Assembly (NCBI GenBank): GCA_943369665.1
Contig: CALRNX020000012.1
Span: 40,501-104,500 of the forward strand
Source: Chitinophaga pinensis
GTDB lineage: Bacteria; Bacteroidota; Bacteroidia; UKL13-3
Reading direction: 5' to 3'
DNA: 64,000 bases
Shown here: positions 1-45,200 of the stretch, piece by piece
Layout: every line of letters begins with the position of its first letter
Position numbering within the stretch: position 1 is the stretch's first letter
Translations under genes and position numbers: made by a program
The notes under the pieces: model-generated
Databases searched by the model: none
What the model saw: the letters and a program-made list of their open reading frames with translations, nothing else
What the model was told of the DNA's origin: nothing

Positions 1-1
1 T

Positions 2-142
2 ATAAACAGACTTCAAGACACCTTTAATTTTAAAGTCAATTGTTCAGGACACGCAGACCTAAATAAGTTACTTGACTTATGCAACTCCTCAATTCCTAAC
101 AAGAAATATAGAAATAAATTTAGACTTTGGCATGACAACTAA
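2..142 (+). CDS. 3' end of an upstream cassette ORF (partial, hypothetical protein)
   Basis: Open frame from the window edge to TAA at 140-142, 13 nt before attC-0. Only 46 codons are visible and they carry no recognisable motif. Confidence 0.3.
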   Translation: MNRLQDTFNFKVNCSGHADLNKLLDLCNSSIPNKKYRNKFRLWHDN

Positions 143-154
143 GAGAAAAACTAC

Positions 155-285
155 TGGTAACACTCCTCTTGCGCTATTGCCGTTAAAGTGCTAAAATGAA
201 ATTTATATTTACGCATAATATTTTATCTTGGTTGACAGATTATCTTACGCAAACGGCAACAGCGCAAGGCGTGGAACCGTTATGC
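155..285 (+). repeat. attC-like site 0 (subfamily B)
   Basis: 131 nt. Starts TGGTAAC and ends GTTATGC. Inner arms CTTGCGCTATTGCCGTT / AACGGCAACAGCGCAAG are complementary with 1 mismatch. Confidence 0.75.
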
Positions 286-337
286 CCAATGTCAAAATCC
301 TTCGTAAAAATAGTACAATTTTTGCTATATTGCAGTA

Positions 338-868
338 GTGAAACGGAAAATAGAAATTGGTCTAGACTTCATTATAGACAAGCTAACTAACTCAATTGAA
401 AACGTTGTGACTGGAGACAGTTTTGCAACCGATGTTTCTATTTTGACTCAACAAGACCTAAAAAACATTACCAAGAAAAATGGATGGCTATTTGACTGGA
501 AGTCAGAATTTAAAAATCCTCTTCGTGACACTTATAAATTAACCATAGTAAATAACTCGACTATTATTCAAGGCTTAATCAGCCTAGAAATTAAACCAGA
601 GCATATTTATATGCATCTTATAGAAAACGCACCGTTCAATAAGGGCAAAGACAAAGTATATGCAGGTGTAGCTGGAAACCTTGTTGCATTTGCTTGTAAA
701 TTATCTTTTCAACGTGGACATCAGGGAAACATATCATTTATATCAAAGACACAATTGATTGAGCACTATCAAAAGACTCTTGGAGCAAGGCATTTTGGTG
801 GACGTTTAATGATCATTGAGACAAAAGATGCACTTCAACTTATTAACAAGTACTTTCAAAATTATTAG
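338..868 (+). CDS. GNAT-fold acetyltransferase-like protein (cassette 1, gene 1)
   Basis: 176-aa ORF with a GTG start. The C-terminal half reads like the GNAT acetyl-CoA motif A region (VYAGVAGNLVAFACKLSFQRGHQG). No signal peptide. Confidence 0.55.
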   Translation: MKRKIEIGLDFIIDKLTNSIENVVTGDSFATDVSILTQQDLKNITKKNGWLFDWKSEFKNPLRDTYKLTIVNNSTIIQGLISLEIKPEHIYMHLIENAPFNKGKDKVYAGVAGNLVAFACKLSFQRGHQGNISFISKTQLIEHYQKTLGARHFGGRLMIIETKDALQLINKYFQNY

Positions 869-870
869 AT

Positions 871-1035
871 ATGAAAAGCAAATTAGTAGAATTAGAGGTT
901 GACTTCATTGGCGGACAAAATGGACTGACAGCTCAAGAAGAAAAAGCATTGAGTGAATACTTCGCTAAAAAGAAACAAATTGCTTTTAAACGGGCAAAGA
1001 CAAAAGTCTCTAAACGCACAAATGTGACAGCTTAG
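871..1035 (+). CDS. Small 54-aa protein with a basic C-terminus (cassette 1, gene 2)
   Basis: ATG lies 2 nt after the stop of the upstream ORF and TAG is at 1033-1035. Translation: MKSKLVELEVDFIGGQNGLTAQEEKALSEYFAKKKQIAFKRAKTKVSKRTNVTA. It is not in the ORF track because it is shorter than 60 aa. Confidence 0.4.
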   Translation: MKSKLVELEVDFIGGQNGLTAQEEKALSEYFAKKKQIAFKRAKTKVSKRTNVTA

Positions 1036-1059
1036 AAACGTCAACAAAGAAAGCACTGG

Positions 1060-1239
1060 GCATAACACACGCCTGCCGCTATTGGCGCTAACTCGCTAAA
1101 TTGTAGTTATCGTTTACGTATTTTACCCATTTTGGCAAGACAAATAAGTGCTTCGTTCCCTTGAGGTTCGCTTTTTGTATGCGTGGCAAACGAAAAGCGA
1201 ACTTTTCTGTATAATTGTTTCGCATAATAAATGTTAGCA
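1060..1239 (+). repeat. attC-like site 1 (atypical, 180 nt)
   Basis: Starts GCATAAC and ends GTTAGCA. The interior differs from the other sites and has its own hairpin (GTTCGCTTTT...AAAAGCGAAC). Both ends show 12/13 complementarity to the neighbouring cassette ends. Confidence 0.55.
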
Positions 1240-1264
1240 CCAATTTTAAAACGACACGACAACA

Positions 1265-1659
1265 ATGAAAAACTGGGACAGGACAGGAAAAATTAAGGCT
1301 ATTATTCTTGGAATTTTAGCATTACCAAATTTACTAATGCCAATCGGTGCAACAGGACAACAAGGACTTGCAATGATTTTAATGCCTTTGATTTTTGGAA
1401 GCATTTCAATTCCTTTAATCGCAAGGTTCAACGCTGGACTTGGACGAGAGATTATAAAACCGACTTGGAATGACAACCCACTTACAATGAAACTTTTCAT
1501 TTTGGCTCATTTTTCTTCCTGACAGTTGGGTTAAGTATGCTTGTTGGGACAGGAATTAAATTTCAAACTCTTAGCTTTTTTGGACTGACAGCAATTTCGT
1601 TCGGACTTGGAATATCGATAGGTATTTGGCTGACACTAAAATGGACAAAATCAAAATAA
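1265..1659 (+). pseudogene. Frameshifted small multi-pass membrane protein (cassette 2)
   Basis: The 85-aa ORF (1265..1522) is hydrophobic. An overlapping frame, open from 1474 to TAA at 1657-1659, continues with two more hydrophobic helices (HFGSFFFLTVGLSMLVGTG...GLGISIGIWLTLKWTKSK). The frames must join between 1474 and 1522 in a T-rich stretch. Confidence 0.45.
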
Positions 1660-1720
1660 TGCTTATGGACTTTTATCGCTTAGTCATTATTACATATTGC
1701 AATGACAGACAAAAAACTGG

Positions 1721-1852
1721 TGCTAACAACACCTACAAGAAATTGGCGGTTCAGTGGTTAAATGAAGCTTTATGCTTCGTATCAAGTTCGTTACTGTCAG
1801 ACAGTTTTCGTCTCCGAAATCGCCAACTTCTTGTAGCTGCAAACCGTTAGGC
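1721..1852 (+). repeat. attC-like site 2 (subfamily A)
   Basis: 132 nt, TGCTAAC ... GTTAGGC. Arms CTACAAGAAATTGGCG / CGCCAACTTCTTGTAG have 1 mismatch. Confidence 0.75.
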
Positions 1853-1877
1853 GCAATTATAATACCCCGACAAACAC

Positions 1878-2921
1878 ATGAGAAAAAAAGAGACTGTCCT
1901 TATAGTACTTTCTATATTTTCATTAGGACTGAATTTATTATTTAGTTCTGGAACGAATCCCTGGCCTGTGATAACATTGTCTTTACTTGCAATGCTTTAT
2001 CTGTTCTTCAGTTTCGCTATTTTGAATAATATTGACCTTAAGAGAATTTTCAAGAAAGAGCCGTATGTAGAAGTAAGCAAAATAAAAATTGCTGGGGCAA
2101 TACTTATTGGACTTGCTCTTTCTTTGACATTAATTGGCATACTCTTTAGATTTAAATATTGGCCAAATTCTTCATTTATTTTAGAAACTGGTCTTGGTGG
2201 ATTATTGCTTGTGACAATCATAGGATTCATTAAATATCCGAGGACAGAATCTGACTATTTTATAAACATCTTTAGACGGATTGTTATTGTTGGTGGACTT
2301 GGTTTACTCTTTATGGTTGTACCTCAGAATACTTGGGTTGCGATTAAATATCGAAATCATCCCCAATGTTCAGACGCATTAAAAAAATTATTAGTCAACC
2401 CTTATAAGACAGAGCTTTGGGACGATTTAGAGTCTGAAAGAAAAAGCATGGAATACACGTGTACTCAAGAAAACATTTCTACGACAAGGAAAATTGAAAA
2501 TGGCGATACTATTCGATGTTCGATTTTATATGACAACCCAAGTATTGTTCACATAAAACAATTTAATTCCAATAAACTTATAGAACAGCAGTTTATAATT
2601 GATCCACATGGAGACACGACATTTGATCCTCAACTGTTTTATTGTAACGATTATAGCCGACTCTTTGCTTTTCTACCTTTACTATCTCATTGGAAAAAGG
2701 ACTTTGTTTATAAGGACGCTAATCTTCTTCTTTATCATTATGAGACCAATCCTAATGTTCCCTTTGACACTGTCTTTTATGGACAAATTCGTAACGAGAG
2801 TATAATATCACTTGAGAAAAGAGATACACATAACCTCATAAGTAGAATACATACTAAAGACAATGAAACAGGTATTTCAGAAGTTTACTTCTCCAGAATC
2901 AGTGACCCGACCGTAAAATAA
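1878..2921 (+). CDS. Hypothetical membrane protein: N-terminal multi-TM region plus a ~190-aa soluble C-terminal domain (cassette 3)
   Basis: 347-aa ORF with about five hydrophobic helices in the first 160 aa. The stop lies 5 nt before attC-3. Confidence 0.7.
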   Translation: MRKKETVLIVLSIFSLGLNLLFSSGTNPWPVITLSLLAMLYLFFSFAILNNIDLKRIFKKEPYVEVSKIKIAGAILIGLALSLTLIGILFRFKYWPNSSFILETGLGGLLLVTIIGFIKYPRTESDYFINIFRRIVIVGGLGLLFMVVPQNTWVAIKYRNHPQCSDALKKLLVNPYKTELWDDLESERKSMEYTCTQENISTTRKIENGDTIRCSILYDNPSIVHIKQFNSNKLIEQQFIIDPHGDTTFDPQLFYCNDYSRLFAFLPLLSHWKKDFVYKDANLLLYHYETNPNVPFDTVFYGQIRNESIISLEKRDTHNLISRIHTKDNETGISEVYFSRISDPTVK

Positions 2922-2925
2922 CTAG

Positions 2926-3057
2926 GCATAACAGCAGTCTTGCGCCATTGCCGTTATCATCTTAAATTCAAGCTTTCGTTTCGCATTTATTTTTTATCTT
3001 GGTTGACAGATTTTCGTTCCGTAATCGGCAACTGCGCAAGGCCGTGGAACGTTATGC
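2926..3057 (+). repeat. attC-like site 3 (subfamily B)
   Basis: 132 nt. Layout: GCATAAC-agcagt-CTTGCGCCATTGCCG ... CGGCAACTGCGCAAG-gccgtggaac-GTTATGC. The R boxes are perfect, there is an unpaired spacer, and the L boxes carry a bulge. Confidence 0.8.
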
Positions 3058-3068
3058 CCAATTATAAA

Positions 3069-3686
3069 ATGACACGTAGGACACTTATATGCTTGACTAT
3101 TTTACTTTCTGCTTGCGGACAGAAAAAGCCATCCGAAAATAGTGTTTTGACAAGCAATCAAATTAAAGTTTCGGCTGACAGTTTAGCCACACATTCAGAC
3201 AAAAATGTAATTGAACATGTACGCACACCCTATTTCGTTGGTGACATCAATAATGACAACAAAGCGGATAGCGCTTATGTTATTTACGAGCGTAGTGTAA
3301 AAGCCGACAGCACAATAGAAATAGAATGTGTTAATAAAAATTGTGAGGTCACTATCAAGTTTACTGGCAATATTCCAGACCTTGTCATTGACCAATCTTT
3401 AGGCATTTACATTCAAAAGACAGAAGACTTAAATAATGACAAAGCCAATGAAATAATATTATTTTCAGAATGGTTTGAAGGTTATTGGTATCGCGTTTAT
3501 GTGTGGACTTTTAATAATGGAAAGTGGAACGAGATTGCAAGAACAAAAGCATTTCTATCCGAAGACAAAGACTACGAAAACAGAATTGTTAAAACCAAAT
3601 CGCAATTTTATTTAGAGGGTGACGGTTGGGACGACAGTAAGGGTGGAGTGACCGAAAGAAGTATTAAAATAAGGATAGAAAAATAA
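3069..3686 (+). CDS. Lipoprotein with FG-GAP/VCBS-like Asp-rich motifs (cassette 4)
   Basis: MTRRTLICLTILLSAC lipobox. Motifs DINNDNKAD and DLNNDKANE. The ORF-track start at 2940 lies inside attC-3, so I chose the ATG at 3069 (an in-frame ATG at 3054 is also possible). Confidence 0.7.
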   Translation: MTRRTLICLTILLSACGQKKPSENSVLTSNQIKVSADSLATHSDKNVIEHVRTPYFVGDINNDNKADSAYVIYERSVKADSTIEIECVNKNCEVTIKFTGNIPDLVIDQSLGIYIQKTEDLNNDKANEIILFSEWFEGYWYRVYVWTFNNGKWNEIARTKAFLSEDKDYENRIVKTKSQFYLEGDGWDDSKGGVTERSIKIRIEK

Positions 3687-3690
3687 CTGG

Positions 3691-3823
3691 GCATAACAGC
3701 ACCTTGCCAAAAGCGGGGCGAAAGTGCGAATATGAACAGTAAAGCATTTAATAAACATTAGTGGTAGCTTGACAGGTTGGTGCTTCGAAAGCCCCGCCTT
3801 CGGCAAGCTTCAGAACGTTATAT
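3691..3823 (+). repeat. attC-like site 4 (subfamily A, divergent interior)
   Basis: 133 nt, GCATAAC ... GTTATAT. Arms CTTGCCAAAAGCGGGGC / GCCCCGCCTTCGGCAAG have 2 mismatches. Confidence 0.75.
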
Positions 3824-3851
3824 GCAAGCATACACAAAACCACAAAAAAAG

Positions 3852-5165
3852 ATGACCTATAAACTAAAATCAATTTGCATTGCAATTCTCATTAGTTGCT
3901 CATTGCAAATAAAAGGGCAGAACGTAGTCTGGACAGATGTTGATAATTTTTGGGCTGCATACGACAAAATTATTCAGACCAAAGACTCTGTTACGCAGTA
4001 TAAGCTACTTGAAGATTTATATTTTTCTAAAGCAACGGAAGGCTTGATTGCTATGAGGCAAGCAAGGAACTATACTGCAAAGGACTATTTAGATGCTATT
4101 AATAATTACCCGAAATTTTGGAATTCTATTCGAAAAAGCACATTAAGAGCTAATGAGTTTTCAAAAGAATTAAACACTGGAATTGAGAAATTACGTCAAA
4201 TATATCCAGAACTAAATCCAGTTAAAATATACTTTACCATTGGAGCAATGAGAAGTAACGGAACAACTTTAGACAGTCTTGTTCTCATAGGTGCTGAGTT
4301 GGCGATGACAGATAAAAATACCGTATCTGATGAACTTTTACCCGATAATTTTAGAATTGGGAGGCGGAAATATTTTGACAGTAACCCAATTAATACTTTG
4401 GTTTTGCTTAATATTCACGAGTATGTTCATACACAACAAAAACCTTGGGTAGATAACTTACTTTCTTATGTGATCAGAGAGGGTGTTGCTGAATACGTTT
4501 CTGTAAAAGCAATGAATGTTCCTTCGGCTGCACCTGCAATTGAATTTGGGAAGAAAAATAACGAAAAAGTAAGGGCAAAATTTGAGCAAGAAATGTTTTA
4601 TATTAACAATCAGAGTAATTGGCTTTGGAGTGACTCTCCAAATGAATTTGGGGTTAGAGATTTAGGATATTATATCGGCTACCAAATGTGTGAGAATTAT
4701 TATAACCAAGCAGAAAACAAATCTTTAGCCATCAAAAAAATGATAGAATTGGATTATACCAACGAGGCTGAAATAGAAGACTTTGTGGCAAAATCTAATT
4801 TTTTCTCAAAGCCACTCAACGAACTCTACCAAGACTTTGAAAAGAAACGTCCGAAGGTTGTTGGCATAACGCAATTTAAAAACAAAAGCAAGAAAGTTAA
4901 TTCCAATATCAAAGAAATAACTATTGAATTTTCAGAGCCTTTAAACGGACACAACACTGGAGTTGATTTTGGAGAATTAGGGCAAAGTGCTTTTCCTAAA
5001 AATGATGGAACAAAAAGATATTGGTCAAACGGTAATAAGGCTTGGACCATTACAGTAGACTTAGAACCTAACAAAAAGTATCAACTGCTGATTACCAATA
5101 ATTTTAGAACTCAAAACGGAATGCCTTTGAAACCCTACTTAATTGAGTTTCAAACTGGAAAATAA
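3852..5165 (+). CDS. Secreted putative Zn-dependent peptidase (HExxH) with a C-terminal Ig-like domain (cassette 5)
   Basis: Signal peptide MTYKLKSICIAILISCSLQIKGQ. HEYVH is at nt 4415-4429. The C-terminal ~100 aa look like a beta-sandwich (ITIEFSEPLN...). The ORF-track start at 3777 lies inside attC-4. Confidence 0.65.
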   Translation: MTYKLKSICIAILISCSLQIKGQNVVWTDVDNFWAAYDKIIQTKDSVTQYKLLEDLYFSKATEGLIAMRQARNYTAKDYLDAINNYPKFWNSIRKSTLRANEFSKELNTGIEKLRQIYPELNPVKIYFTIGAMRSNGTTLDSLVLIGAELAMTDKNTVSDELLPDNFRIGRRKYFDSNPINTLVLLNIHEYVHTQQKPWVDNLLSYVIREGVAEYVSVKAMNVPSAAPAIEFGKKNNEKVRAKFEQEMFYINNQSNWLWSDSPNEFGVRDLGYYIGYQMCENYYNQAENKSLAIKKMIELDYTNEAEIEDFVAKSNFFSKPLNELYQDFEKKRPKVVGITQFKNKSKKVNSNIKEITIEFSEPLNGHNTGVDFGELGQSAFPKNDGTKRYWSNGNKAWTITVDLEPNKKYQLLITNNFRTQNGMPLKPYLIEFQTGK

Positions 5166-5175
5166 AAATGCCTGC

Positions 5176-5306
5176 ACATAACACGGGTTTGGCAAAAGTG
5201 GCGGTTCAGTGCTCCGCAGACAGATTTGTGGTAGCCGAAAGTTCAGTTCTCAGATTCAACATTTATGGAGAAAATCGCCACTTTTGCCAAGCCCGAAACG
5301 TTAGCG
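5176..5306 (+). repeat. attC-like site 5 (subfamily A, divergent interior)
   Basis: 131 nt, ACATAAC ... GTTAGCG. Arms GGGTTTGGCAAAAGTGGCG / CGCCACTTTTGCCAAGCCC have 1 mismatch. Confidence 0.75.
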
Positions 5307-5384
5307 CCAATTTTTAATTAACCACATTGATTTAAATACAAATTCTATTCAAGACAATTTTAAAACAAATAAATTTCTACCAAA

Positions 5385-5780
5385 ATGTTAAACCAAATTA
5401 AGATCACCATACTCATAATTAGTGCGACTTTGATAATGAGTTGTAAACATTCAAAACCTAAAACCCCGGATTTTATTGAGACAAAGAAGCTTGAACAAGA
5501 ATTTGGTACATTAATTCAGGCAGACAACATAAACATAAATGGAAGTGAGAATGACGAAAACTCCGTGCTTGAAATAAATATTATAAATGGCAAAAGTCTT
5601 TCAACAATTGAAGACGAACAAAGAGCTCTTGCCCATTCATTAGCGAGAATTGTGAAAGTCAACCTTAAGGATTCAAATCAGTTCGATACCTATATGGTAA
5701 AGTTCGGGAAGAAGTCTGAAGGAGAAAGCTTAGCAATTGAGACTTATACCCGATTCGACTTTAAACTGAACGAACTGTAG
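5385..5780 (+). CDS. Small lipoprotein, hypothetical (cassette 6)
   Basis: 131 aa with the lipobox LIMSC. Confidence 0.65.
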   Translation: MLNQIKITILIISATLIMSCKHSKPKTPDFIETKKLEQEFGTLIQADNININGSENDENSVLEINIINGKSLSTIEDEQRALAHSLARIVKVNLKDSNQFDTYMVKFGKKSEGESLAIETYTRFDFKLNEL

Positions 5781-5813
5781 CAAATAGAAAACTCATCAAG
5801 AAAGTAAAACTGT

Positions 5814-5945
5814 TGCTGACAGTGGCCTTGAACCATTACCGTTAACTTACTAAAATTCAATATTTCGTTTCGCATTTGTTTTATCTTAGCAGGACAATTT
5901 AACGTTACGTATACGGCAACAGCGCAAGGTCGCAATCCGTTATGG
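5814..5945 (+). repeat. attC-like site 6 (subfamily B, decayed)
   Basis: 132 nt. The inverse core reads TGCTGAC (GAC, not AAC) and the core is GTTATGG. The left L arm CTTGAACCATTACCGTT is only partly complementary to ACGGCAACAGCGCAAG. Confidence 0.55.
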
Positions 5946-5986
5946 ACAATTTTAATGACCAAAAGTTCAACAAATAAAAAAGACAG

Positions 5987-6487
5987 ATGATAAAAAAGGC
6001 ATTATTTCTTCTTACAATAATTTTTAGTTTAAATGTTTCTGGACAAAACAACGGAAAAGTGGTTATGACGTCATTTATCCCAAAGTCAAAAGCCTACGAC
6101 ATTTATTATCCGAAAGGTTTTTATTTGAAAGAAGACAATGAAGGAATTGTTACAATCAATGACTCAACTTCAAAACTAAATATTTCAATCAGTTCATATT
6201 CCATTAACAAAGGAATGAATGACAAAAAATTAATTGAGCAGCTTAATGGTTTCGTGAAAAGTTACTATAAGAAAGAAATAAAAGAGGAAGATTGGAATAG
6301 TTATAAAACGAAATTTGAGATTTTGGTAGAGTCTAAATTTTCTGTCGACCAAACAAATTGGGTTTGGTATGGTATTGTAGACAAACAAAGATTAGTTACA
6401 ATTTCGGTTAACAAGGAAAATGTCATCGAAAAAGAGGAGCTAAATCTTGTTCAATATATGATTAACAATTTAATAATTAATGAATAG
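5987..6487 (+). CDS. Secreted hypothetical protein (cassette 7)
   Basis: 166 aa with signal peptide MIKKALFLLTIIFSLNVSGQ. Confidence 0.65.
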   Translation: MIKKALFLLTIIFSLNVSGQNNGKVVMTSFIPKSKAYDIYYPKGFYLKEDNEGIVTINDSTSKLNISISSYSINKGMNDKKLIEQLNGFVKSYYKKEIKEEDWNSYKTKFEILVESKFSVDQTNWVWYGIVDKQRLVTISVNKENVIEKEELNLVQYMINNLIINE

Positions 6488-6516
6488 GTTTGTCAGAAAT
6501 GATAATAAAAAACTAC

Positions 6517-6647
6517 ATATAACGGGTGCTTGGCAAAAAGCGGTTTCAGTGCTTAAATGAAGCTTTGTGCTTCGTATCAAGTTCAGTGCTGGCAGACAGT
6601 TTAGTGCTTCGGAATCCGCTTCTTCGCCAAGCGCCCAAACGTTATAG
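6517..6647 (+). repeat. attC-like site 7 (subfamily A)
   Basis: 131 nt, ATATAAC ... GTTATAG. Arms GGGTGCTTGGCAAAAAGCGG / CCGCTTCTTCGCCAAGCGCCC pair with bulges. Confidence 0.8.
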
Positions 6648-6667
6648 GCAACCAAAATGCCTACACT

Positions 6668-7264
6668 ATGAAATCAAAAACATATAAATTAATCGGAGCG
6701 ATTTGTATAACCGCAATTACACTGACTATGATTCATTTTTCAACGGGGCTTTTTACTCGATATAATTTTATAACAGCAAGACTCGACATAATGAACAAAA
6801 ATTATCGAATTGTTCATTATGGAGAGAGAAAGGTTACCGATAAAATTGCCGAGGAAATTAGCCCTGAATTTGGTTTTAAATATGAAGGCACGAATTGCAG
6901 CGTGACTACTCCACTTATTAATGGCATTGACAGCTATAACAAAATTATGACACGACAATTGGATAAAGTATACGGATCGGACTGGTTCTTTGACTTTGAA
7001 GACCGAACAGACTCCCTATTCCGAGAATCGAGAGTCGACACTATAAGACAAATTATCTCATCACAAGAAGATTATAAAGAGCTAGAAAAGGTGTTCGACA
7101 AGTTATATCATGGGACAAGGAAACTAACAGTTTGGGTTTTAATTCATGAAGACAATGGAGATAACGTTCGTGTGTGTGAAAGATTTGGAGACACCGCAAT
7201 TCGGGTTTTTGACTATTACCATGTTGACCCTTATTCATTAAAAGTATCTACTGTCCGTTATTGA
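6668..7264 (+). CDS. N-terminally membrane-anchored hypothetical protein (cassette 8)
   Basis: 198 aa with a single N-terminal hydrophobic helix (LIGAICITAITLTMIHF). Confidence 0.65.
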   Translation: MKSKTYKLIGAICITAITLTMIHFSTGLFTRYNFITARLDIMNKNYRIVHYGERKVTDKIAEEISPEFGFKYEGTNCSVTTPLINGIDSYNKIMTRQLDKVYGSDWFFDFEDRTDSLFRESRVDTIRQIISSQEDYKELEKVFDKLYHGTRKLTVWVLIHEDNGDNVRVCERFGDTAIRVFDYYHVDPYSLKVSTVRY

Positions 7265-7292
7265 GACACTGTCGACTCAGAAAATCGGCTGC

Positions 7293-7425
7293 CTATAACA
7301 GCAATCTTGCGCAATTGCCGTTATTATCCTTAAATACAGTATTTCGTTTCGCTTTTATTTTTTATCTTGGTAGACAGATTTTCGTTCCGTAATCGGCAAC
7401 TGCGCAAGGTTGCGGAACGTTAGCG
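7293..7425 (+). repeat. attC-like site 8 (subfamily B)
   Basis: 133 nt, CTATAAC ... GTTAGCG. Arms CTTGCGCAATTGCCGTT / AATCGGCAACTGCGCAAG. Confidence 0.8.
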
Positions 7426-7444
7426 GTCAGCTTAAAAAACGACA

Positions 7445-8029
7445 ATGAAACAAATAATCTACATATTGACAATTTTAATATTAACAGCTTGCGGACAAAC
7501 CAACACTGAACAGAATTCTAATATAAGTATAGAAACTAAGGCTGAACAAGTTTTGGACACAACCTATTCAGACAATAAACAAACTGATAAAAAAGCCACG
7601 ACAGACGAAAAAGAGACCGAGGAGTATAGAAAACAATCTTTAAGTGGATTTGAAAAAGCAACATTATATAAATTGACCGATACAATTACGGCAGACTTTA
7701 ACGGAGACGGATTTTTAGACAAAGCGATTTATAAAAAAGAAATCGAAACATCGGGAATAATCATCATACACGGAAAGACAAATGAGCGAGTAAAAATTGG
7801 TTTTGGAAAACAGTTTGCACATTTGACAGAATTCAATTGGGTTGACTATTGGGGACTTGTTGAAGACAAAGAAACAAGTGAAACAACGTTTACAGAAGAC
7901 GGAGACGTTTTGGACAGTAAAACAGTTAAGCTCAAAAATCCTTCAATAGCTTTGGGTAAAGACGAAGTTGGTGGCGGACTAATAACATACAGAAATGGAG
8001 AATATGAATGGATACACCAAACTTGTTGA
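7445..8029 (+). CDS. Lipoprotein with an FG-GAP/VCBS-like motif (cassette 9)
   Basis: Lipobox ILTAC and motif DFNGDGFLD. 194 aa. Confidence 0.7.
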   Translation: MKQIIYILTILILTACGQTNTEQNSNISIETKAEQVLDTTYSDNKQTDKKATTDEKETEEYRKQSLSGFEKATLYKLTDTITADFNGDGFLDKAIYKKEIETSGIIIIHGKTNERVKIGFGKQFAHLTEFNWVDYWGLVEDKETSETTFTEDGDVLDSKTVKLKNPSIALGKDEVGGGLITYRNGEYEWIHQTC

Positions 8030-8044
8030 CAAAGAAAGCCGAAC

Positions 8045-8176
8045 CGCTAACAGGCGTTTGGCAAAAAAGCGGTTTCAGTGCTTAAATGAAGCTTTGTGCT
8101 TCGTATCAAGTTCAGTGCTGGCTGACTGTTTAGTGCTTCGAAATCCGCTTCTTCGCAAAGCGGCAAACCCTTATAG
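8045..8176 (+). repeat. attC-like site 9 (subfamily A, mutated core)
   Basis: 132 nt, CGCTAAC ... CTTATAG. The first core base is C instead of G. The interior is near-identical to sites 7 and 10. Confidence 0.7.
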
Positions 8177-8204
8177 GTAAGCGTAAAAGACGACACAACG
8201 ACAA

Positions 8205-8729
8205 ATGAACATTGACTTTGACAACATATTTCAACACGTAATTCCAATGGACGACTTTGGACGAAAATGGCGTTTTACGGAAGAGAAGTTTGACGTACTA
8301 CCCGACCAACATCTTGACCTGCTAAAACCGTTAGACAAAGAAGCTGCAAAATTCTTGTGGGACTATATCGCAAAGACAAATTTGCACAACGACATCCCTT
8401 TTAAAAAAGACTTCTTTCGGACTATTGACAAAGCAAAAATTTTAGATGGTAACGAAAAAGAAATTAAAAAGTGGCTTTACCATCGTGGACTTCCTTTTGA
8501 CAAGCCCGTTTTTCTATCTTGGGACGAGACAGACGCAATGATTGTTCCTTGGAAACTTTTAATAAAATACTTCGACAGCTTTTATTATGGTTCATCGGAC
8601 GACCTAACTGTAATAGACCAAAGTTTAAACTGGGCGTTAGTATTTTATCACGAGGACGAAATTTATTTTGGAACTAATAAGGACTTTAAACCAAACGAAA
8701 CATTTGCAGAAGTTAACTTTATTTGGTAA
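8205..8729 (+). CDS. Cytoplasmic hypothetical protein (cassette 10)
   Basis: 174 aa with no signal peptide and an acidic, aromatic-rich composition. No motif I can name. Confidence 0.65.
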   Translation: MNIDFDNIFQHVIPMDDFGRKWRFTEEKFDVLPDQHLDLLKPLDKEAAKFLWDYIAKTNLHNDIPFKKDFFRTIDKAKILDGNEKEIKKWLYHRGLPFDKPVFLSWDETDAMIVPWKLLIKYFDSFYYGSSDDLTVIDQSLNWALVFYHEDEIYFGTNKDFKPNETFAEVNFIW

Positions 8730-8753
8730 CAACATAGTTTACAGAACGCCTAC

Positions 8754-8877
8754 CTATAACAGGCGTTTGGCAAAAAAGCGGGCTCAGTGCTTAAATGAGG
8801 CTTTGTGCTTCGTATCAAGTTCAGTGCTGGTTGACAGTTTTGTGCTTCGAAATCCGTCAAGCGCCAAGATGTTATGA
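8754..8877 (+). repeat. attC-like site 10 (subfamily A, shortened right arm)
   Basis: 124 nt, CTATAAC ... GTTATGA. It shares the conserved interior CAGTGCTTAAATGA.GCTTTGTGCTTCGTATCAAGTTCAGTGCTGG. Confidence 0.75.
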
Positions 8878-8896
8878 CTAATCCTAAAGACAATAA

Positions 8897-9502
8897 ATGA
8901 CAATTAAGCTTTTCCACCTATTTATTTTTGTTACGTTCATTTTCAGCTGTGACAATGACAGTGCTATTAAACAAAAAAGGCAGCCCTCAAATGATACAGT
9001 ATCATCCGTTACTTTGGATGAGGAAAACGAATCGCACTTTGAAGAAAACGACTGTGTTTTTGATACTAGTACATATAAATTTACAACAGAAGCGCTAAAA
9101 AAATATCGCGACAACATCAAATTCGCTTGGGACAACAAAGACAACAGTGCGACAACCATACTTGATAATGGTGACACCTTAAATATAAGTATTGGTGGTT
9201 GTAATCACTTTGGGTACTCCGCGACATTGTATTCTTCAATTCATTTCGACAACACAAAAGAGCTTATCAAAAAAGCACATTGGCTTGCGAAGACTTTTTT
9301 TGATAATGGATTTGATACTAAATATGATGAGTGCATCAGAAAAGGACAATATGAGCCTAGTTATAATCACGACACGATTAACATTAAATCCTTTGACATA
9401 ATTGATCGAGACACGTCAGAAACAAATTTGATATATGAAGGCTTCACATTTTTCAGAACAGGCGACAGGACAAAAATAGTAATCAGTGGTTACATCAACT
9501 GA
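8897..9502 (+). CDS. Lipoprotein, hypothetical (last cassette)
   Basis: 201 aa with the lipobox FIFSC. No attC-like site follows it. Confidence 0.65.
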   Translation: MTIKLFHLFIFVTFIFSCDNDSAIKQKRQPSNDTVSSVTLDEENESHFEENDCVFDTSTYKFTTEALKKYRDNIKFAWDNKDNSATTILDNGDTLNISIGGCNHFGYSATLYSSIHFDNTKELIKKAHWLAKTFFDNGFDTKYDECIRKGQYEPSYNHDTINIKSFDIIDRDTSETNLIYEGFTFFRTGDRTKIVISGYIN

Positions 9503-9564
9503 AAGAGGTACTACGCTAGCGGTTTTGCCGCAATTCGTCACGGGCTCTTGGGAAGGTTAACTCC

Positions 9565-10689
9565 CTAAACAAACAAATCACTCGCAATCCCATCGGCCAT
9601 AATCCTAGCATGTCTTGTGAGTTTGTAAAAATGGCCGTTTTGTTCGATCAAACCTTCCTGCATTTTTTGTTGCAATCCGGTAGTAATTGTTTTGGCAAAT
9701 GGAGCGCCAAACTCTTTTTCAAACCATTGCAGGTCCAATCCCCAAATGGTACGGAGGCTTGTCATGATGTATTCGTTGATCCTGTTTTCAATGGTCAGTT
9801 CTTCAACTTCCGAAACAAGAGTTCCGCTTTCAATTCCTTTTAAGTAAAGATTGTTGTTGGCCATATTCCAGCTCCGTGTTTGTTTGTTAAACGAATGAGC
9901 CGATGGCCCGACACCCAGGTATATTTTGTTTTTCCAGTAGTTGGTATTGTGCACCGCGTATTGGCCATTGCGTGCAAAATTGGAAATCTCGTATTGCTCA
10001 AATCTATTTGCTTCCAATGTGTTTACCAGCATTTCAAATTGTTCACCGGCTTGTTCTTCACTTGGAGCAATGACTTTGTGTTTTTTGATCAACGTATCCA
10101 AAGCTGTTTTAGGCTCTACCGTTAAACAATACGAAGAAATATGGTTGAGGTTTAAGTCCAAAGCCGTTTGCAAATTGGCTTGCCATTTTTCATTGGTTAA
10201 GGTAGGCGAACCATAGATCAGGTCAATCGTAATATTAGGGAATCCTGCATCCTGAACAAGCTTGATCACATGAAACGCTTCGCTTGCAGTATGCGCCCTG
10301 TTCATCCATTTGAGTTCTTCATCAAAAAAAGACTGAACACCAATACTGAAACGGTTGACAGGCGATTGTTTGAGTTCCATAATTTTTGAGGGGATCAGGT
10401 CATCAGGATTGGCTTCCAACGTAATTTCTGCAGTTGGTGATACCTTAAAGTGTTTGTATAACGCTTCAAACAATTGACCAAGTTGTTGTTCCGTTAACAA
10501 CGAGGGTGTTCCTCCTCCAATATAAATCGACTCAATTGTTTCGTTAAGCACATATTGTTTGCGGGTGATCAGTTCGTTCACAATGGCGTTCACCATTTCC
10601 TGTTTGTACGAAAGCTGGGTGCTGAAATGAAAATTGCAATAATAACATGCCTGTTTACAAAAAGGAATATGAATGTAAATACCTGCCAT
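9565..10689 (-). CDS. hemW: Radical SAM heme chaperone HemW (HemN-like, oxygen-independent coproporphyrinogen oxidase family)
   Basis: The N-terminus IHIPFCKQACYYCNFH carries the CxxxCxxC radical SAM motif. Length is 374 aa. Confidence 0.85.
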   Translation of the reverse strand: MAGIYIHIPFCKQACYYCNFHFSTQLSYKQEMVNAIVNELITRKQYVLNETIESIYIGGGTPSLLTEQQLGQLFEALYKHFKVSPTAEITLEANPDDLIPSKIMELKQSPVNRFSIGVQSFFDEELKWMNRAHTASEAFHVIKLVQDAGFPNITIDLIYGSPTLTNEKWQANLQTALDLNLNHISSYCLTVEPKTALDTLIKKHKVIAPSEEQAGEQFEMLVNTLEANRFEQYEISNFARNGQYAVHNTNYWKNKIYLGVGPSAHSFNKQTRSWNMANNNLYLKGIESGTLVSEVEELTIENRINEYIMTSLRTIWGLDLQWFEKEFGAPFAKTITTGLQQKMQEGLIEQNGHFYKLTRHARIMADGIASDLFV

Positions 10690-34671: not shown

Positions 34672-34753
34672 TGCGCATGGAGGGACTCGAACCCCCACGC
34701 CTCTCGGCACCAGATCCTAAGTCTGGCACGGCTACCAATTACGCCACATGCGC
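34672..34753 (-). tRNA. tRNA-Leu (anticodon UAG)
   Basis: On the minus strand the sequence reads GCGCATG...CCAGA-CTTAGGA-TCTGG...long variable arm...GGGGGTTCGAGTCCCTC-CATGCGC-A. It forms a cloverleaf with a 7-bp acceptor stem. CCA is not encoded. Confidence 0.9.
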
Positions 34754-39287: not shown

Positions 39288-42200
39288 TTAATCTTTAAGA
39301 ATTTTTACTACACGTGTTTCGTTGTTCAAAATTACTTTAACAAAGAAAAGCCCTTTTTTCAAATTTTCAAGCATGTCCAGGGTAATATTATTTAAACCCT
39401 CGGATATGCTATATTGATGGCTTAAAATTACTTTGCCTTGCATATCAATGAGCGTAATGGTTGCCATTTCTGTAACATCAGATGGGATAATAAGGTGGAT
39501 ATTATCATTAAATGGATTAGGGTAAACCACTACTTGTTCAAGTTTGGTACTTAATGCCTTATTGAAATCAACTTTTACCACCTGTGAGGTTGCAGATGAG
39601 CCATCTATATCCACCGAGATCATACGGTAGTATATCGTTGATGCATTATTCATGTCAAGTTGCGCATCCAAATGAGTGAGTTGGTATTCGGTAAGCGTTG
39701 CGCTGTTGCCTTTTGCTTTTACAGTACCAATTTGCTTAAATGATTTTCCATCAGCTGATGCCTGAATGATAAATTTATGGGCATTTATTTCTGATGCGGT
39801 TGACCAGTAAACGATCACGTTCTTTGAGCTGCGTTGTGCAATGAACTTGGTGAGTGTAACAGGAACGGGACTGGCTAAATTTTCATCAGCACCCATATAT
39901 GGCCGCACTGAATTTCTTGCTTCCCCATCAAAGTCGGTAGTATAATTAAGCACCGGTGTTCCCCCGAGATCAAAGTCTCCAATTGAAGCCCCACTCAGAT
40001 GCAAATCGGCAGCAGCAGTATTGCTAAAGTTTACGTTTTTGCTGATCGAGTTTGCGTCACCAAGTGATAATGTTTTCCATGATGCCAGATCACCGGTTGT
40101 TGTTCCCCATAAGGTTAAGTTTGCCGGGTTTACACTATAGAAATTGTTGTAGTCATTGATCGAACTGATCCATGATGAATCCGGGCGTGTTCCTTCGTTC
40201 CCGATTGCATAATGCAAGCCAGGTGACGATACCGTATTTATGAATAAATTATTCTGCATCACAATTGGCTGGTAAGATTGGGTTATCAAACTATTTTCTC
40301 CACGGTGGAAAGCAAATGATGAAACAGGTTGTCCACTTGTATTGCCAATATGTATGGAGTTATAGAAATAGAAATGAACATTTCCATTAGCACCAGTTAC
40401 CATAACACCATTCAGCTGCACGGAATCAGATGGGTTGTTGGTAAGCGAAATCATATTGTTATGGATTGCAGTTGCCGAATCTAAGAAGCGCATATATAAT
40501 CCGTTAGCTGTACCGCGTATGGTATTTCCACTGGCAAGAGAATGGTTTTTGATATTATAGATGATGTTATGATGGATACTTCCAGGGAAATTGGATGCTG
40601 TGACACCAGAAACGTTTGTTGCAGCAGTAGTGTTGGTTCCCGTTATTTCATAGATGGTATTATAGCCAACTTCACTTGTTGGGCCATATCCTCCAGCAGG
40701 GAAACAATAAATACCCTGTGCCACAATACTTCCTCCTGTATAAGCAGCCGCAGTCGAATTAGAGCTTAAATTGGATATTCTATTGTGTAAAATATGACAA
40801 GACGGATATGGAGATCCTGAAGAAAAACTTATTCCCCTGATAACCGCTCCGGTTGCAATATTTGAATTGGTCATGTTGGCAACCCTGTTATGCTCAATGG
40901 TTACAAGTGTATTCACTAGTGCATTGGTATTACTGATACCAACGATTGCTGCCGTACCGGCATTGGTGATACTATTTGCATTAACAGAGTCTCCAATCAA
41001 ATTGTAGTTCACGAGGGCATTTCCGCGGGTAACCACAATCCCTGTAACAGCTCCGCCTCCCGTATTTGTTTTTGTAAAGTTGCGAACAATGTTCCGAGAA
41101 ACGGTTGAAACCGAAAGAGAATCGAATGATGCTGAAATACCAATAAATGCGGTTGTTCCATTATGAACCCACGGTGTTCCTCCCGCATTGATCGTTGTAC
41201 CCCCAATGGTATTATGCGTAATGGTATTGTAATTAGACGCTGCAGCAAATAAAATTGCAGTTTGTGCAGTTGTAGGGATCGTAGCGGAGTTATAATAAAT
41301 ATTGTTGTTGCCGATATACCAGTTTCCACCATTTCCCGTTGCACTTATATTGATCGCACTGGTTGTAAAATTGAATATTTCATTGCTGTCAATTTTGTTG
41401 TAATGATTTGAAGCAGCAGCATTTCCACTACTGTAGATCGCATTAGCAGGAATTCCGGCTGCGGTTGACAGGTCGCGGATTTTATTACTGATAATTGTAT
41501 TGCTATCATTACCCAAAGCTTTGGTTGTCGACCCAATAAGAATGGTGCCACTTGTAGACACTGTATTTGCACTTTCAATTGTCAAATTCCTCAAGGTATT
41601 GTATCGGGCATCGTTGGTAAAGCTAATGGCAGGACCAGTTGTAGCTGTTGTACGGGTATTCCGTATGGTCCATTCACTAGTTGTGCCTCCGTCTGGTCTG
41701 CCATCAAACATTAAATTGTCAACACCATCAAAAGCAATAAGTGCACCTGCACTACCTGCATCTCCTGCGGTTACACGTGCTGTAACCGATGCAGCCGGAC
41801 GAATGGTTACTTTCCATGGTGTTCCATTGGTCATAATTTGGTTGAAATAAATAGGGAATACTTCTCCTACTGTTCCATCATAATCACTTTGTAATTCAAA
41901 CAGTACATCACTAACAAGTTCTGAATTGTTGAGCAAATTGGCTACAACCGTTAAGCTGGTATATGTACCTGTTGCACCTATGGTAAAATTACCACCTAGA
42001 GGGGCTAGTGTAGGTGTTAATGGATTGTTTATGTCTTCATCGGCTCCCATGTACGGATACACAGATGCCCGGGCTTCTCCATCAATATCGGTAGGAATGC
42101 TGCCAATATAACGTCCTGCAAAACTATTGTTGCCAATTGTTGGTGATGTTAAATGAAGATCGGTAGAGGAAACAAAGGCTACGGAAGAGTTTATAGATGA

Positions 42201-45200
42201 CAAATCCTGAAGTGAAGCAGTTTTCCAAGCTGCAAAATCTCTTGCCGTGCCGTTCCATTCACCAACCGTAGATGCATTGGTACTGTACAAATCATTGTAA
42301 TTTGCCTGCCACGAACCTCCGGTACTTCCTATTGCATAGTTCTCAACACTGCCTGTACGAATATTGTTAAAGATATTATTTTTAACAGTAGTGACTGAAG
42401 TTCTTAATTTTCGGAAGCCGTAAGATTTTACATCGGGGCTTGCACCTGCATAATTACCTTCAATGGAAACCGAATTGTGAAGCACATTGACTGTTCCGGA
42501 AGTTGAGTCCATAATACCAACCACTCTGGCATTTGATGAAATAAGCGTACCTAAACTTACCATATTATTGGCAATTGTCCAGTTTGCCCCTGCAAATAAA
42601 TTAATACCAATTACCAATGCATCTGTATTAGAACTCGTATTTAAGAAATCGTATACTTTGTTGCGGGCGATTATACCTGAACCGGTTGTACTACCCACAT
42701 TGATTCCATTGCATCGGGTAGGAGATACTCCCGATGGTCCTCCATCAGATGATAAATTTGAAATGGTATTGTCTACAATTTGCTGGTTGGTATTGGCACT
42801 GCTGGTATAGATACCTTGAACAGCCGAGGTGTTGCTGGATACCGTTACTGTAGCAACAGAAAGTTTATGAATAGTATTATTTCGAATAACTATTGCATCG
42901 GTTGTGTTCGATCCTGTGTGAGAAATACCTCGATGACCAACCGCATTGGTTGTACCTGTAGAGGTAATATTGGCAATGGTGTTGTTATATATTGTTGCTA
43001 TGGGAGTACTGGTGATGGTAATGCTCAGATGTGTACCAAGCAATGCACTCGTGATGCTATTGCTAGTTGTTAAATGACCAATGGTGTTACCGTTAATACT
43101 CACTCTTCCGCCTGTTACTTCAATTCCTGCATATGTTCCCGTGGCGGTTCCGGTGAGTGCTATATTTTGAATGGTATTGTTTTTTATAAAAGTCGAGTCC
43201 TGAGTTCCTACTGCACACACAATTCCTCTCCATGCAATTCCTCCGCTATTTGTCCATGCTGATCCTCCTGCATTTGCAGCAGTTCCTCCGATTGCATTTC
43301 CGATAATCTGATTGGTATTTCCGGCCGAAAGTAAACGGATAGCTGTTTGCGCTGTAGCTGCGGCAGCGGTCATGTAAAATTGATTGTTGTTAATGTTCCA
43401 TCCATTGCCATTCCCAGTTGCAGTAACATGTACGCCACTGGCAGACCAGTTGAATATTTGATTATCAAGAATGTCAATGCCATGGTTGGTTGCTTCATCT
43501 GTTCCATTTGAAAAAATGGCATTAGCCGGCATACCTATGCTATCTGATCGGTCTCTGATGATATTGTATCGAATGATATTAGAATCGTTTCCAAGCGTAC
43601 CTGTTGTGGTTGAAAAGAGGATCGTTCCACTTGTAGCAACAGCATTTGCACTTTGGATATTCAAATACTCGAGTATGTTGTGTTGGGCTTCATTGATAAA
43701 ACGAATTGTTGGTGTAAATGTTCCATCAGCTCTTTTGTTACGAATCGTCCACTTAATATTCGTCATATCGCCTGATCCTCCAGGTCGTCCATCAAAATAA
43801 ATATGATGTGTTGCATTCAAATCGATCAATGGCATATCAGCATTCGGTATCCCGGCAGTCGTTAGCATACTGGATACATTACCTTCCGGACGAATGATTA
43901 CTTTGATAGAAGAATCGGAGCGGCTAATATTATCGAATGATAGCGGGAAAGATTCTCCGGTTGTTCCATCGTAATCGGCAAGCAATTCCACTGTAACATC
44001 ACTTGTGAAGTGATTTTGTTTCAGATATGCAAGTGCATCGGTTATTTTTTGGTAATTACCACTTGCTCCAACAGTAATTGTTCCCCCTGCTATGATAGGA
44101 AGGATACGATACAACTGAATCGTTCCGCTAATTGGAAAAGCACCGGCCAATAAATCAACACTGTCGGGAGTGTTTGCAAAAGAAATACCACTGCTGGCAC
44201 CAACGTTTGTATTTTCCGAAAAGTCTTGGGCTACAATGAAATATTGGATACTGTCTCCTCCCGATACAGCTCCTCCCAATAGTAGATTATAGTCGATTGT
44301 AAAGTTAAAAGGGCTCGTAGTGTTTGATGCTTCCACCCATTTCCATCCGTTATCTCCGGAAGTATTTCCGACATACGCATTATCGTCAGTTGTTTTTTTG
44401 TAATACAAACGAGGCTTGTGTGCAGAGGTGTCAATTCCGGATACATCTGTAATACTTGCAAATCCTATTAATGTAGGACTTGTAGTTGAAACGGTATTTA
44501 ACAGTGGAGTAAAGGAAACAGTTGGGTTAACCATATCCACAACTTTTTCATAAGCACCTATTGTTGGGTTGGTAGCATCACGCAGTGTATCAATAATGTC
44601 ATTTGTAATTCCCGAGATTGGAGTCCCTGCTCCCTCAGCTGGTGAGGTTGGTAATGGAATCAGTAATGATGAACTGTTAAATAAAGGATTAGTACCCACA
44701 CTTTGCTGGTCGAATGCTCCACCATTGGCGAGTTTCCAGTCGGCTAATGTTATTGCATTTGTATTATAGTATCCAACCCCCACAGTTCCACTTGCATTCA
44801 TGTATAATAAGTTATTGTTGGAAGTGATACTAGAAGAGGCCGTTCCAAACCTCAAACAATTTTTGGTGCCACTTCCTCCTCTTGTAATGCTTACGATATT
44901 ATTTTTTATGATAACATTAGATGCTTCGGTTAGTTGGTAAATTCCGTATGTTGTTCCAGCTGTTGCATCCGGATAACTTAAGTCAATTGTGTTGTAATAG
45001 TAATGTACACCATCAGAACCACTGCTGTAGATACCATAGATAGTTCCTGTTAAGCTGTTGAAGTTATAAATAAGATTATTGGACACTATATTCTCAAATC
45101 CAACGGGAGCATCATTTGCTGAGCTATATATTCCATAAGCAGTACCCGATTGTGTGGTAGCCGAATTGTGTGTATCATGAATCTTGTTTTTTGAAACGTT

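Follow-up and report, generated by a model that had tools for sequence, protein, structure and literature searches.

What kind of gene array occupies the start of this stretch of the Chitinophaga pinensis assembly GCA_943369665.1 (contig CALRNX020000012.1, positions 40,501 to 104,500 of the forward strand), and do the ends of its units carry the imprint of integron recombination? The whole 64,000-nt stretch is referred to here as the window. Its positions 1-9560 hold short open reading frames (ORFs), all on the plus strand, with structured repeats between them. The original prediction had interpreted the repeats as recombination sites of the attC type and the beginning of each unit as the reverse complement of the start of its own downstream attC, the footprint expected from circular cassettes opened between G and TT. 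Our analysis makes it very probable that the region, part of a Bacteroidota chromosome, represents the distal portion of an array of integron-type gene cassettes, the ends of each cassette pairing with its own attC. The cross-cassette pattern is real, and it is a standard signature of integron cassettes, not a new insight.

The array runs in one direction (plus strand) and comprises 11 cassettes and 11 attC-type sites, named S0 to S10 (Table 1). Every site opens with an inverse-core-like ...AAC, the end of its R'' box, and closes with GTT..., the beginning of its R' box. Ten of the 11 are 124-133 nt long; the remaining one, S1, measures 180 nt. A covariance model (CM) trained on the ten window sites other than S1 was searched against the complete window and recovered these ten sites and no others, and an Rfam search returned no family matching the sites at gathering thresholds. 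For the inner arms (L''/L') of the same ten sites, RNAalifold predicted 17 pairs with compensatory changes in 14 of them. The array mixes attC sites of two or three sequence types, interleaved with one another. Departures from the invariant triplets occur in the R' of S9, which reads CTT (window 8170), and in the R'' of S6, which ends in GAC (5818-5820).

In order to quantify the cross-cassette pattern, we compared two 13-base stretches at a time, one beginning at the core G of a given site and the other, reverse-complemented, finishing with the AAC of a second site. On recheck, the coordinates and counts of all seven originally quoted pairs proved correct (Table 1). Over the ten junctions of the window, the mean match amounted to 10.6/13 with the next site, compared with 7.7/13 for the two ends of the same site and 7.25/13 (sd 1.7) for other pairings; the earlier remark that ends of one and the same site match less well is borne out by these means. 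When the R'' partners were permuted, none of 200,000 permutations reached the observed sum of 106 (null 76 ± 6). Leaving aside the invariant GTT, the excess persisted, with 7.8/10 for the next site versus 4.9 for the same site and 4.4 for other pairings. Core positions 4-7 taken by themselves (p = 1.5e-4) and positions 8-13 outside the core (p = 4e-5) each showed it. Furthermore, for seven out of ten junctions the R'' of the next site was the best or joint-best complement in the entire 64-kb window.

Extension of this analysis toward other genomes replicated the pattern on a much broader basis. The 30-nt centre of one site type has an exact match in at least 119 species-representative genomes, nearly all of them Bacteroidota, with carriers including Flavobacterium, Pedobacter, Chitinophaga, Sphingobacterium, Cyclobacterium, Hymenobacter, Runella, Algoriphagus, and Saprospiraceae. 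Across many families and orders of the phylum (loci L001-L119; related loci are numbered with the prefix L), the whole site of ~132 nt is 88-95% identical to the window sites. None of the window ORFs recurs in these 119 related loci, matches being confined to the attC sites, and the proteins of the window occur only on short contigs of run ERR9580569, broken at repeats. A few attC matches lie in metagenome-assembled genomes labelled Gracilibacteria, Ignavibacteriaceae, and Hyphomicrobiales, which may represent binning errors or transfer. The window-derived model detected 226 sites in the related loci, yielding 106 consecutive junctions from about 50 other Bacteroidota genomes. Here, the match averaged 9.7/13 with the next site, 6.8 with the same site, and 6.4 with a random one (z = 23). 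The permutation test that the original prediction had proposed for itself hence came out in its favor, next-site complementarity exceeding same-site and random complementarity in the window as well as in the 106 junctions elsewhere.

Resolved by position, the 106 junctions match the next site in 82-85% of cases at positions 5-9, where all four bases are represented, versus 28-50% for the same site. The match drops to 45% at position 10 and 4% at position 11, returns to 60-74% at positions 12-15, and is at background from position 16 on. The sole mismatch of the 12/13 pairs is not random either: position 11 carries A on the R' side versus G in the complement of R'' in all ten window junctions, and A versus G or C in 91 of 95 junctions elsewhere. 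On the top strand, this non-pair places A against C, and on the bottom strand T against G. Judged by these frequencies, the paired outer arm comprises 15 positions, about twice the classical 7-bp core, being composed of 9 bp, a conserved non-pair at positions 10-11, and 4 further bp.

Where a cassette begins and ends can be seen from copies in different genomes. One cassette is shared by two of them (L103 and L089), its homology extending from GTTAC to GTTA between unrelated flanks. The R' bases of the two copies differ (ACAAGC versus ACCAGT), with compensating changes in R''. Four more pairs of shared cassettes have left boundaries compatible with GTT, blurred by the similarity of the attC sites. 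Homologous cassettes (L103:1720-1851 versus the minus strand of L089, and L033 versus L112) also have the same outer and inner attC stems around an unrelated central segment, which appears to be exchangeable.

A corresponding boundary was found at the head of the arrays. In six loci, the array is preceded by a tyrosine recombinase gene of the same orientation, and in five of them the attI is a palindromic region, not of the attC type, that ends in ...TATAnnnAA|GTTA about 100 nt past the recombinase stop (in L028 about 700 nt). In all six loci, the 15 bases following the G of attI match the reverse complement of the R'' of the first attC at 11-14 of 15 positions. Within a larger collection of related loci, 27 elements have, some 100 nt past the stop of the recombinase gene, a palindromic region of non-attC type with the end ...ATATAAnnAA|GTTA, and the bases behind it are complementary to the first attC. 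Cultured carriers are Flavobacterium sp. GNP001 (GCA_054343775.1) and F. ovatum (CP160035.1). The genome of Flavobacterium sp. GNP001 contains the recombinase and attI followed by 13 attC sites; its junctions average 12.75/15 and reach 14/15 in eight of 12, the single mismatch there being position 11. In the same genome (L202:11145-12389), an exact copy of the 15 bases behind the G of attI follows the first attC, and the next junction matches poorly (7/15), suggesting that the first cassette was duplicated or truncated.

Some further observations concern these array heads. The attI of loci L122-L146 is palindromic over ~90 nt and contains a genome-specific box three times, and a conserved tacatttg/tatatttg motif lies just past the recombinase stop, pointing into the array. 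This motif resembles the Bacteroidetes -7 promoter element, TAnnTTTG, and could be the cassette promoter. In L130 (3428-7346 and 10528-17110), attC sites flank the recombinase gene on both sides, all in the same orientation, an arrangement that could reflect elements in tandem or an array with a recombinase gene inside it.

Folding predictions are in line with the pairing of a cassette's own ends. Rejoining the 5' end of a cassette to its attC lowered the folding energy of the bottom strand by a mean of 6.2 kcal/mol, with a gain in 70 of 78 sites. For the window sites, the rejoined own ends fold better than the array form in eight out of ten. Moreover, the bottom strand is predicted to be more stable than the top strand in 65 of the 78 sites (mean -28.5 versus -24.9 kcal/mol). 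In the minimum free energy (MFE) folds, 56 of the 78 sites have a one-sided 4-nt bulge next to the R box, on the R'/L' arm, and 1x1 mismatches occur in the L stem; the canonical pair of single extrahelical bases (such as T-N6-G) did not show up in the MFE folds of the 78 sites, which are predictions only.

According to the standard integron model, a cassette would be a mobile unit, its free form carrying one complete recombination site. This complete site would constitute an imperfect palindrome whose outer arms, R'' (...AAC) and R' (GTT...), are base-paired in the folded bottom strand. Strand exchange by a tyrosine recombinase would take place inside the conserved GTT of R', and the site would therefore be split in the integrated linear form: the portion from R'' to the G would make up the 3' end of the cassette, and TT with the remainder of the R' arm its 5' end. 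The R' following any attC in an array would then be a chimera, taking its variable bases from the next cassette and pairing with the R'' of the next attC instead of that of the adjoining site. In experiments on class 1 integrons, the crossover falls between G and TT of the core GTTRRRY (PMC3518468), and by definition a cassette extends from the first T of one R' to the G of the following R' (PMC2674596). As our results match the predictions of this model, the original interpretation is supported. Its G|TT cut of circular cassettes stands with respect to the boundary, which lies at GTT(A); the exact cut is taken from class 1 integrons, and the circular intermediate and the use of the bottom strand are inferred.

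Three other explanations of the pairing were considered. It might act at the RNA level, the 5' leader of a transcript pairing with sequence past the stop codon in order to control stability, termination, or translation, with no role in mobility. The pairing partners indeed flank each ORF on the sense strand, the leaders share a conserved A-rich motif, and attC hairpins are known to influence the translation of downstream cassettes (PMC4670013). However, the non-pair at position 11 is A opposite C on just this sense strand and T opposite G on the other one, and it is the antisense (bottom) DNA strand that folds better in the majority of sites. Such a function would also leave aside that homology between cassette copies ends exactly at GTT on both sides and that the pairing rule holds at the attI junctions beside the recombinase. 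We consider it very unlikely. Small transposons or elements resembling miniature inverted-repeat transposable elements, with terminal inverted repeats of 13-15 bp and moved by a transposase instead of folded-site recombination, would account for the inverted terminal sequences (TTA...CCAAT at one end, ACTGG...TAA at the other). Yet there is neither a transposase in or beside the units nor any target-site duplication, the units keep one orientation throughout, and a structured palindrome of ~132 nt with a covarying stem is present at one end only. Together with the polar arrays downstream of a tyrosine recombinase and an attI ending in the same GTTA, this leaves such elements hardly any probability.

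A third explanation holds that conserved motifs (GTTA...CCAAT versus ATTGG...TAAC) combined with a selective choice of pairs produced the signal. It draws on the fact that the three weakest junctions had been left out of the originally quoted list, and on the conservation of GTT/AAC and CAAT/CTG in most sites, which already brings same-site and random pairings to about 7/13. The permutation, though, retains all of these motifs and still never attained the observed sum; the signal resides in the variable positions 5-9 and 12-15 with all four bases involved, and it was replicated in 106 unselected junctions. Having been tested in this way, the explanation is rejected, its residual probability being practically nil.

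We also examined the linked recombinases of the related loci (L020, L023, L027, L028, L040, L078, L122-L146, and L202). Their genes have the same orientation as the cassettes, and their genomic setting is an array, not a dif site. An extra N-terminal domain of ~75 residues is present in the linked recombinases and duplicated in L020. By sequence, the closest structural relatives are archaeal XerA proteins (4A8E, 5HXY), and the best-scoring model is NF040815 (XerA/"integron integrase"), with 198-233 bits around its cut-off of 220. The XerC and XerD models reach 170-190 bits, far below cut-offs of ~330. The family comprises at least 8,000 protein clusters at E <= 1e-30, and sources label it "site-specific tyrosine recombinase/integron integrase" or "XerD." A metagenome search starting from the recombinase revealed co-oriented downstream attC sites in 11 of the 15 close relatives with enough downstream sequence; in total, 28 attC sites were located downstream versus four upstream.

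Several points weigh against the reading as integron cassettes and have to be set beside this evidence. The 64-kb window contains neither a tyrosine recombinase or integrase gene nor an attI. Three junctions, S2 to S3 (1846 to 2932, 9/13), S5 to S6 (5300 to 5820, 9/13), and S6 to S7 (5939 to 6523, 8/13), are at or near background, so that the original claim of a cross-cassette pattern applies to the seven junctions listed there and fails for the three it had passed over. The circular form of the cassettes is deduced from the pairing pattern. Rare variants of the GTT/AAC triplets among the 106 junctions are too few, several being shifts of the model alignment, to fix the cut within the triplet; what the sequence alone provides is a bracketing of the exchange to the invariant GTT(A). 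In respect to the enzyme, the linked recombinases reach 188-214 bits against TIGR02249 (integron integrase), below its cut-off of 265 and with the match split in two. Furthermore, the 62-residue segment formed by residues 181-242 of VchIntIA (2A3V) is represented by only 20 residues. K209, Y210, W219, P232, H240, and H241 of this segment contact the extrahelical bases (PMC3053210), and the segment, termed the IntI-specific additional domain around patch III, serves as a defining feature of integron integrases (Messier & Roy 2001, cited via PMC9668308). In a survey of tyrosine recombinases, the IntI insertion was described as "not fully conserved" in an integron-like subgroup (PMC8138268). Since the recombinase stays below the TIGR02249 threshold and is devoid of the IntI-specific segment, the mechanism of cassette recombination outlined above would apply here by analogy with canonical IntI.

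Comparison with known systems places the array itself within the integron-cassette kind, for which the end pattern is already known. With class 1 integrons (Hall/Stokes model), it shares the tandem repetition of same-orientation units made of an ORF and an imperfect palindrome, the conserved ...AAC and GTT... ends, the boundary inside the R' core with its chimeric R', and a first cassette abutting an attI with GTTA at its end; its units agree precisely with the definition of a cassette by the first T of R' and the following G (PMC2674596, PMC3518468). In contrast to class 1 integrons, the outer arm takes up 15 positions instead of 7 with a fixed non-pair at position 11, and the cores read GTTAnnn, not strict GTTRRRY. 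The predicted bottom-strand fold likewise differs from that of class 1 attC sites, showing a one-sided 4-nt bulge in place of the two-sided spacer and the two single extrahelical bases. Sedentary chromosomal integrons, such as those with the Vibrio cholerae repeats, resemble the array in their chromosomal location, their many cassettes of unknown function, and their attC sites of uniform length (here 131-133 nt) that are highly alike within an array (PMC8618304). They differ in that their attC family is restricted to one genus, whereas here 88-95% identity spans many families and orders of one phylum, and two or three attC types are interleaved in one array. The window array has 11 attC sites without an integrase and continues past the window start, so that an integrase may be located upstream; related arrays have the linked recombinase. 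Like IntI, this recombinase adjoins an attI and an array and scores higher with TIGR02249 than with XerC/XerD; unlike VchIntIA (2A3V), it has 20 residues replacing 181-242, an extra N-terminal domain of ~75 residues, and a gene co-oriented with the cassettes.

The atypical site S1 deserves separate consideration. The original prediction had regarded the pattern as validating this 180-nt site, which is correct for its two outer junctions, both being good with 12/13 each, and incorrect for its interior, which is not that of a canonical attC. S1 was missed by the CM, its L'' arm has no L' partner, and its fold does not surpass that of shuffled sequence (z = -0.9). Positions 1081-1092 inside the site form a 12-mer, ATTGGCGCTAAC, that complements the R' at 1233-1244 (11/12) and, without any mismatch (12/12), positions 5300-5311 at the 5' end of cassette 6. 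For that 5' end, the best complement in the window lies inside S1 (1080-1092), the R'' of cassette 6 itself matching poorly. This suggests that S1 is the trace of a past rearrangement or fusion, and fused cassettes resulting from attC damage are known (PMC4670013). By eye, "gtttcgcATAATAAAT|GTTAGC" in the 3' half of S1 resembles the attI ends of L141, L124, and L145. The corresponding reading as an attI remnant was not supported: an nhmmer profile of 27 attI ends gave no match to S1, and a blastn search with the S1 interior found no attI.

The coordinates of all cassettes and sites are compiled in Table 1. At its 5' side, the array extends beyond the edge of the window, i.e., it is interrupted by the window start. 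At its 3' side, a whole-window search found no complement to the 5' end of the terminal cassette, and a hemW-like gene (9565-10689, minus strand; Pfam Radical_SAM and HemN_C) directly abuts the array end. It is followed by genes of the gldL/gldM/porP type, and this succession therefore assigns the region to a Bacteroidota chromosome. The ORF of cassette 2 (1265-1660) stops at 1522 and coding-like sequence runs on in another frame to ~1658, so that it is possibly a frameshifted pseudogene. Outside the array and unrelated to it, the window holds a 3768-residue ORF (39288-50594) and a tRNA gene (34672-34753), both on the minus strand.

Table 1. Cassettes and attC-type sites of the array at window positions 1-9560. 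Junction counts give matching bases between the 5' end of a cassette and the R'' of its own attC; counts over the length originally quoted are added where they differ.
Feature	Position	Strand	attC site	Last C of R''; G of R'	Junction	Further evidence
Upstream cassette, 3' part, S0	1-279	+	155-285	161; 279		CM 122.6 bits; R'' TGGTAAC
Cassette 1 (ORF 338-868, small ORF 871-1035), atypical S1	280-1233	+	1060-1239	1066; 1233	279-291 vs 1054-1066, 12/13	no CM match
Cassette 2, S2	1234-1846	+	1721-1852	1727; 1846	1233-1245 vs 1715-1727, 12/13	CM 123.5 bits
Cassette 3 (ORF 1878-2921), S3	1847-3051	+	2926-3057	2932; 3051	9/13, background	CM 117.6 bits
Cassette 4, S4	3052-3817	+	3691-3823	3697; 3817	3051-3063 vs 3685-3697, 12/13 (quoted 10/10)	CM 112.5 bits
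Cassette 5 (GldB-like lipoprotein ORF 3852-5165), S5	3818-5300	+	5176-5306	5182; 5300	3817 vs 5182, 11/13 (quoted 10/12)	Pfam GldB_lipo E = 1.2e-8; CM 92.5 bits
Cassette 6, S6	5301-5939	+	5814-5945	5820; 5939	9/13	CM 104.6 bits
Cassette 7, S7	5940-6641	+	6517-6647	6523; 6641	8/13, background	CM 131.4 bits
Cassette 8, S8	6642-7419	+	7293-7425	7299; 7419	6641-6653 vs 7287-7299, 12/13	CM 125.6 bits
Cassette 9, S9	7420-8170	+	8045-8176	8051; 8170	7419-7427 vs 8043-8051, 9/9 as quoted; 10/13 overall	CM 130.3 bits
Cassette 10 (DUF2947 ORF 8205-8729, Pfam), S10	8171-8871	+	8754-8877	8760; 8871	8170-8182 vs 8748-8760, 11/13	CM 107.9 bits
Terminal cassette (ORF 8897-9502), without attC	8872-9560	+				no CM match after 8877

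Considering the known distribution of integrons, the host system may be new, representing a Bacteroidota-wide integron-like family. IntegronFinder 2.0 reported one complete integron in Bacteroidetes (PMC9024848), and a 2024 preprint lists Bacteroidota among the clades previously found without integrons (10.1101/2024.07.02.601686). A full-text literature search, which did not cover subscription journals, returned nothing that describes these Bacteroidota arrays, nor any integron integrase lacking the domain for which an array had been demonstrated. Tentatively, and with somewhat less than even confidence, we propose a widespread integron lineage of the Bacteroidota that combines an IntI-related recombinase lacking the IntI domain with near-identical attC sites of ~132 nt, which have a 15-position R stem with a fixed non-pair, a predicted one-sided bulge of 4 nt, and no canonical extrahelical bases in their predicted folds.

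For the window, the pattern confirms that the units are true integron-type cassettes and supplies exact boundaries for their annotation. The IntI-specific domain is held to be essential in integron integrases. If the proposed lineage holds true, the recombination of cassettes at folded sites would not need this domain, and integron surveys keyed to it would have overlooked a phylum-wide reservoir. Provided that the elements are active, they would represent a large, overlooked system of gene exchange and, at the same time, a natural test for the integrase and attC features that are truly required.

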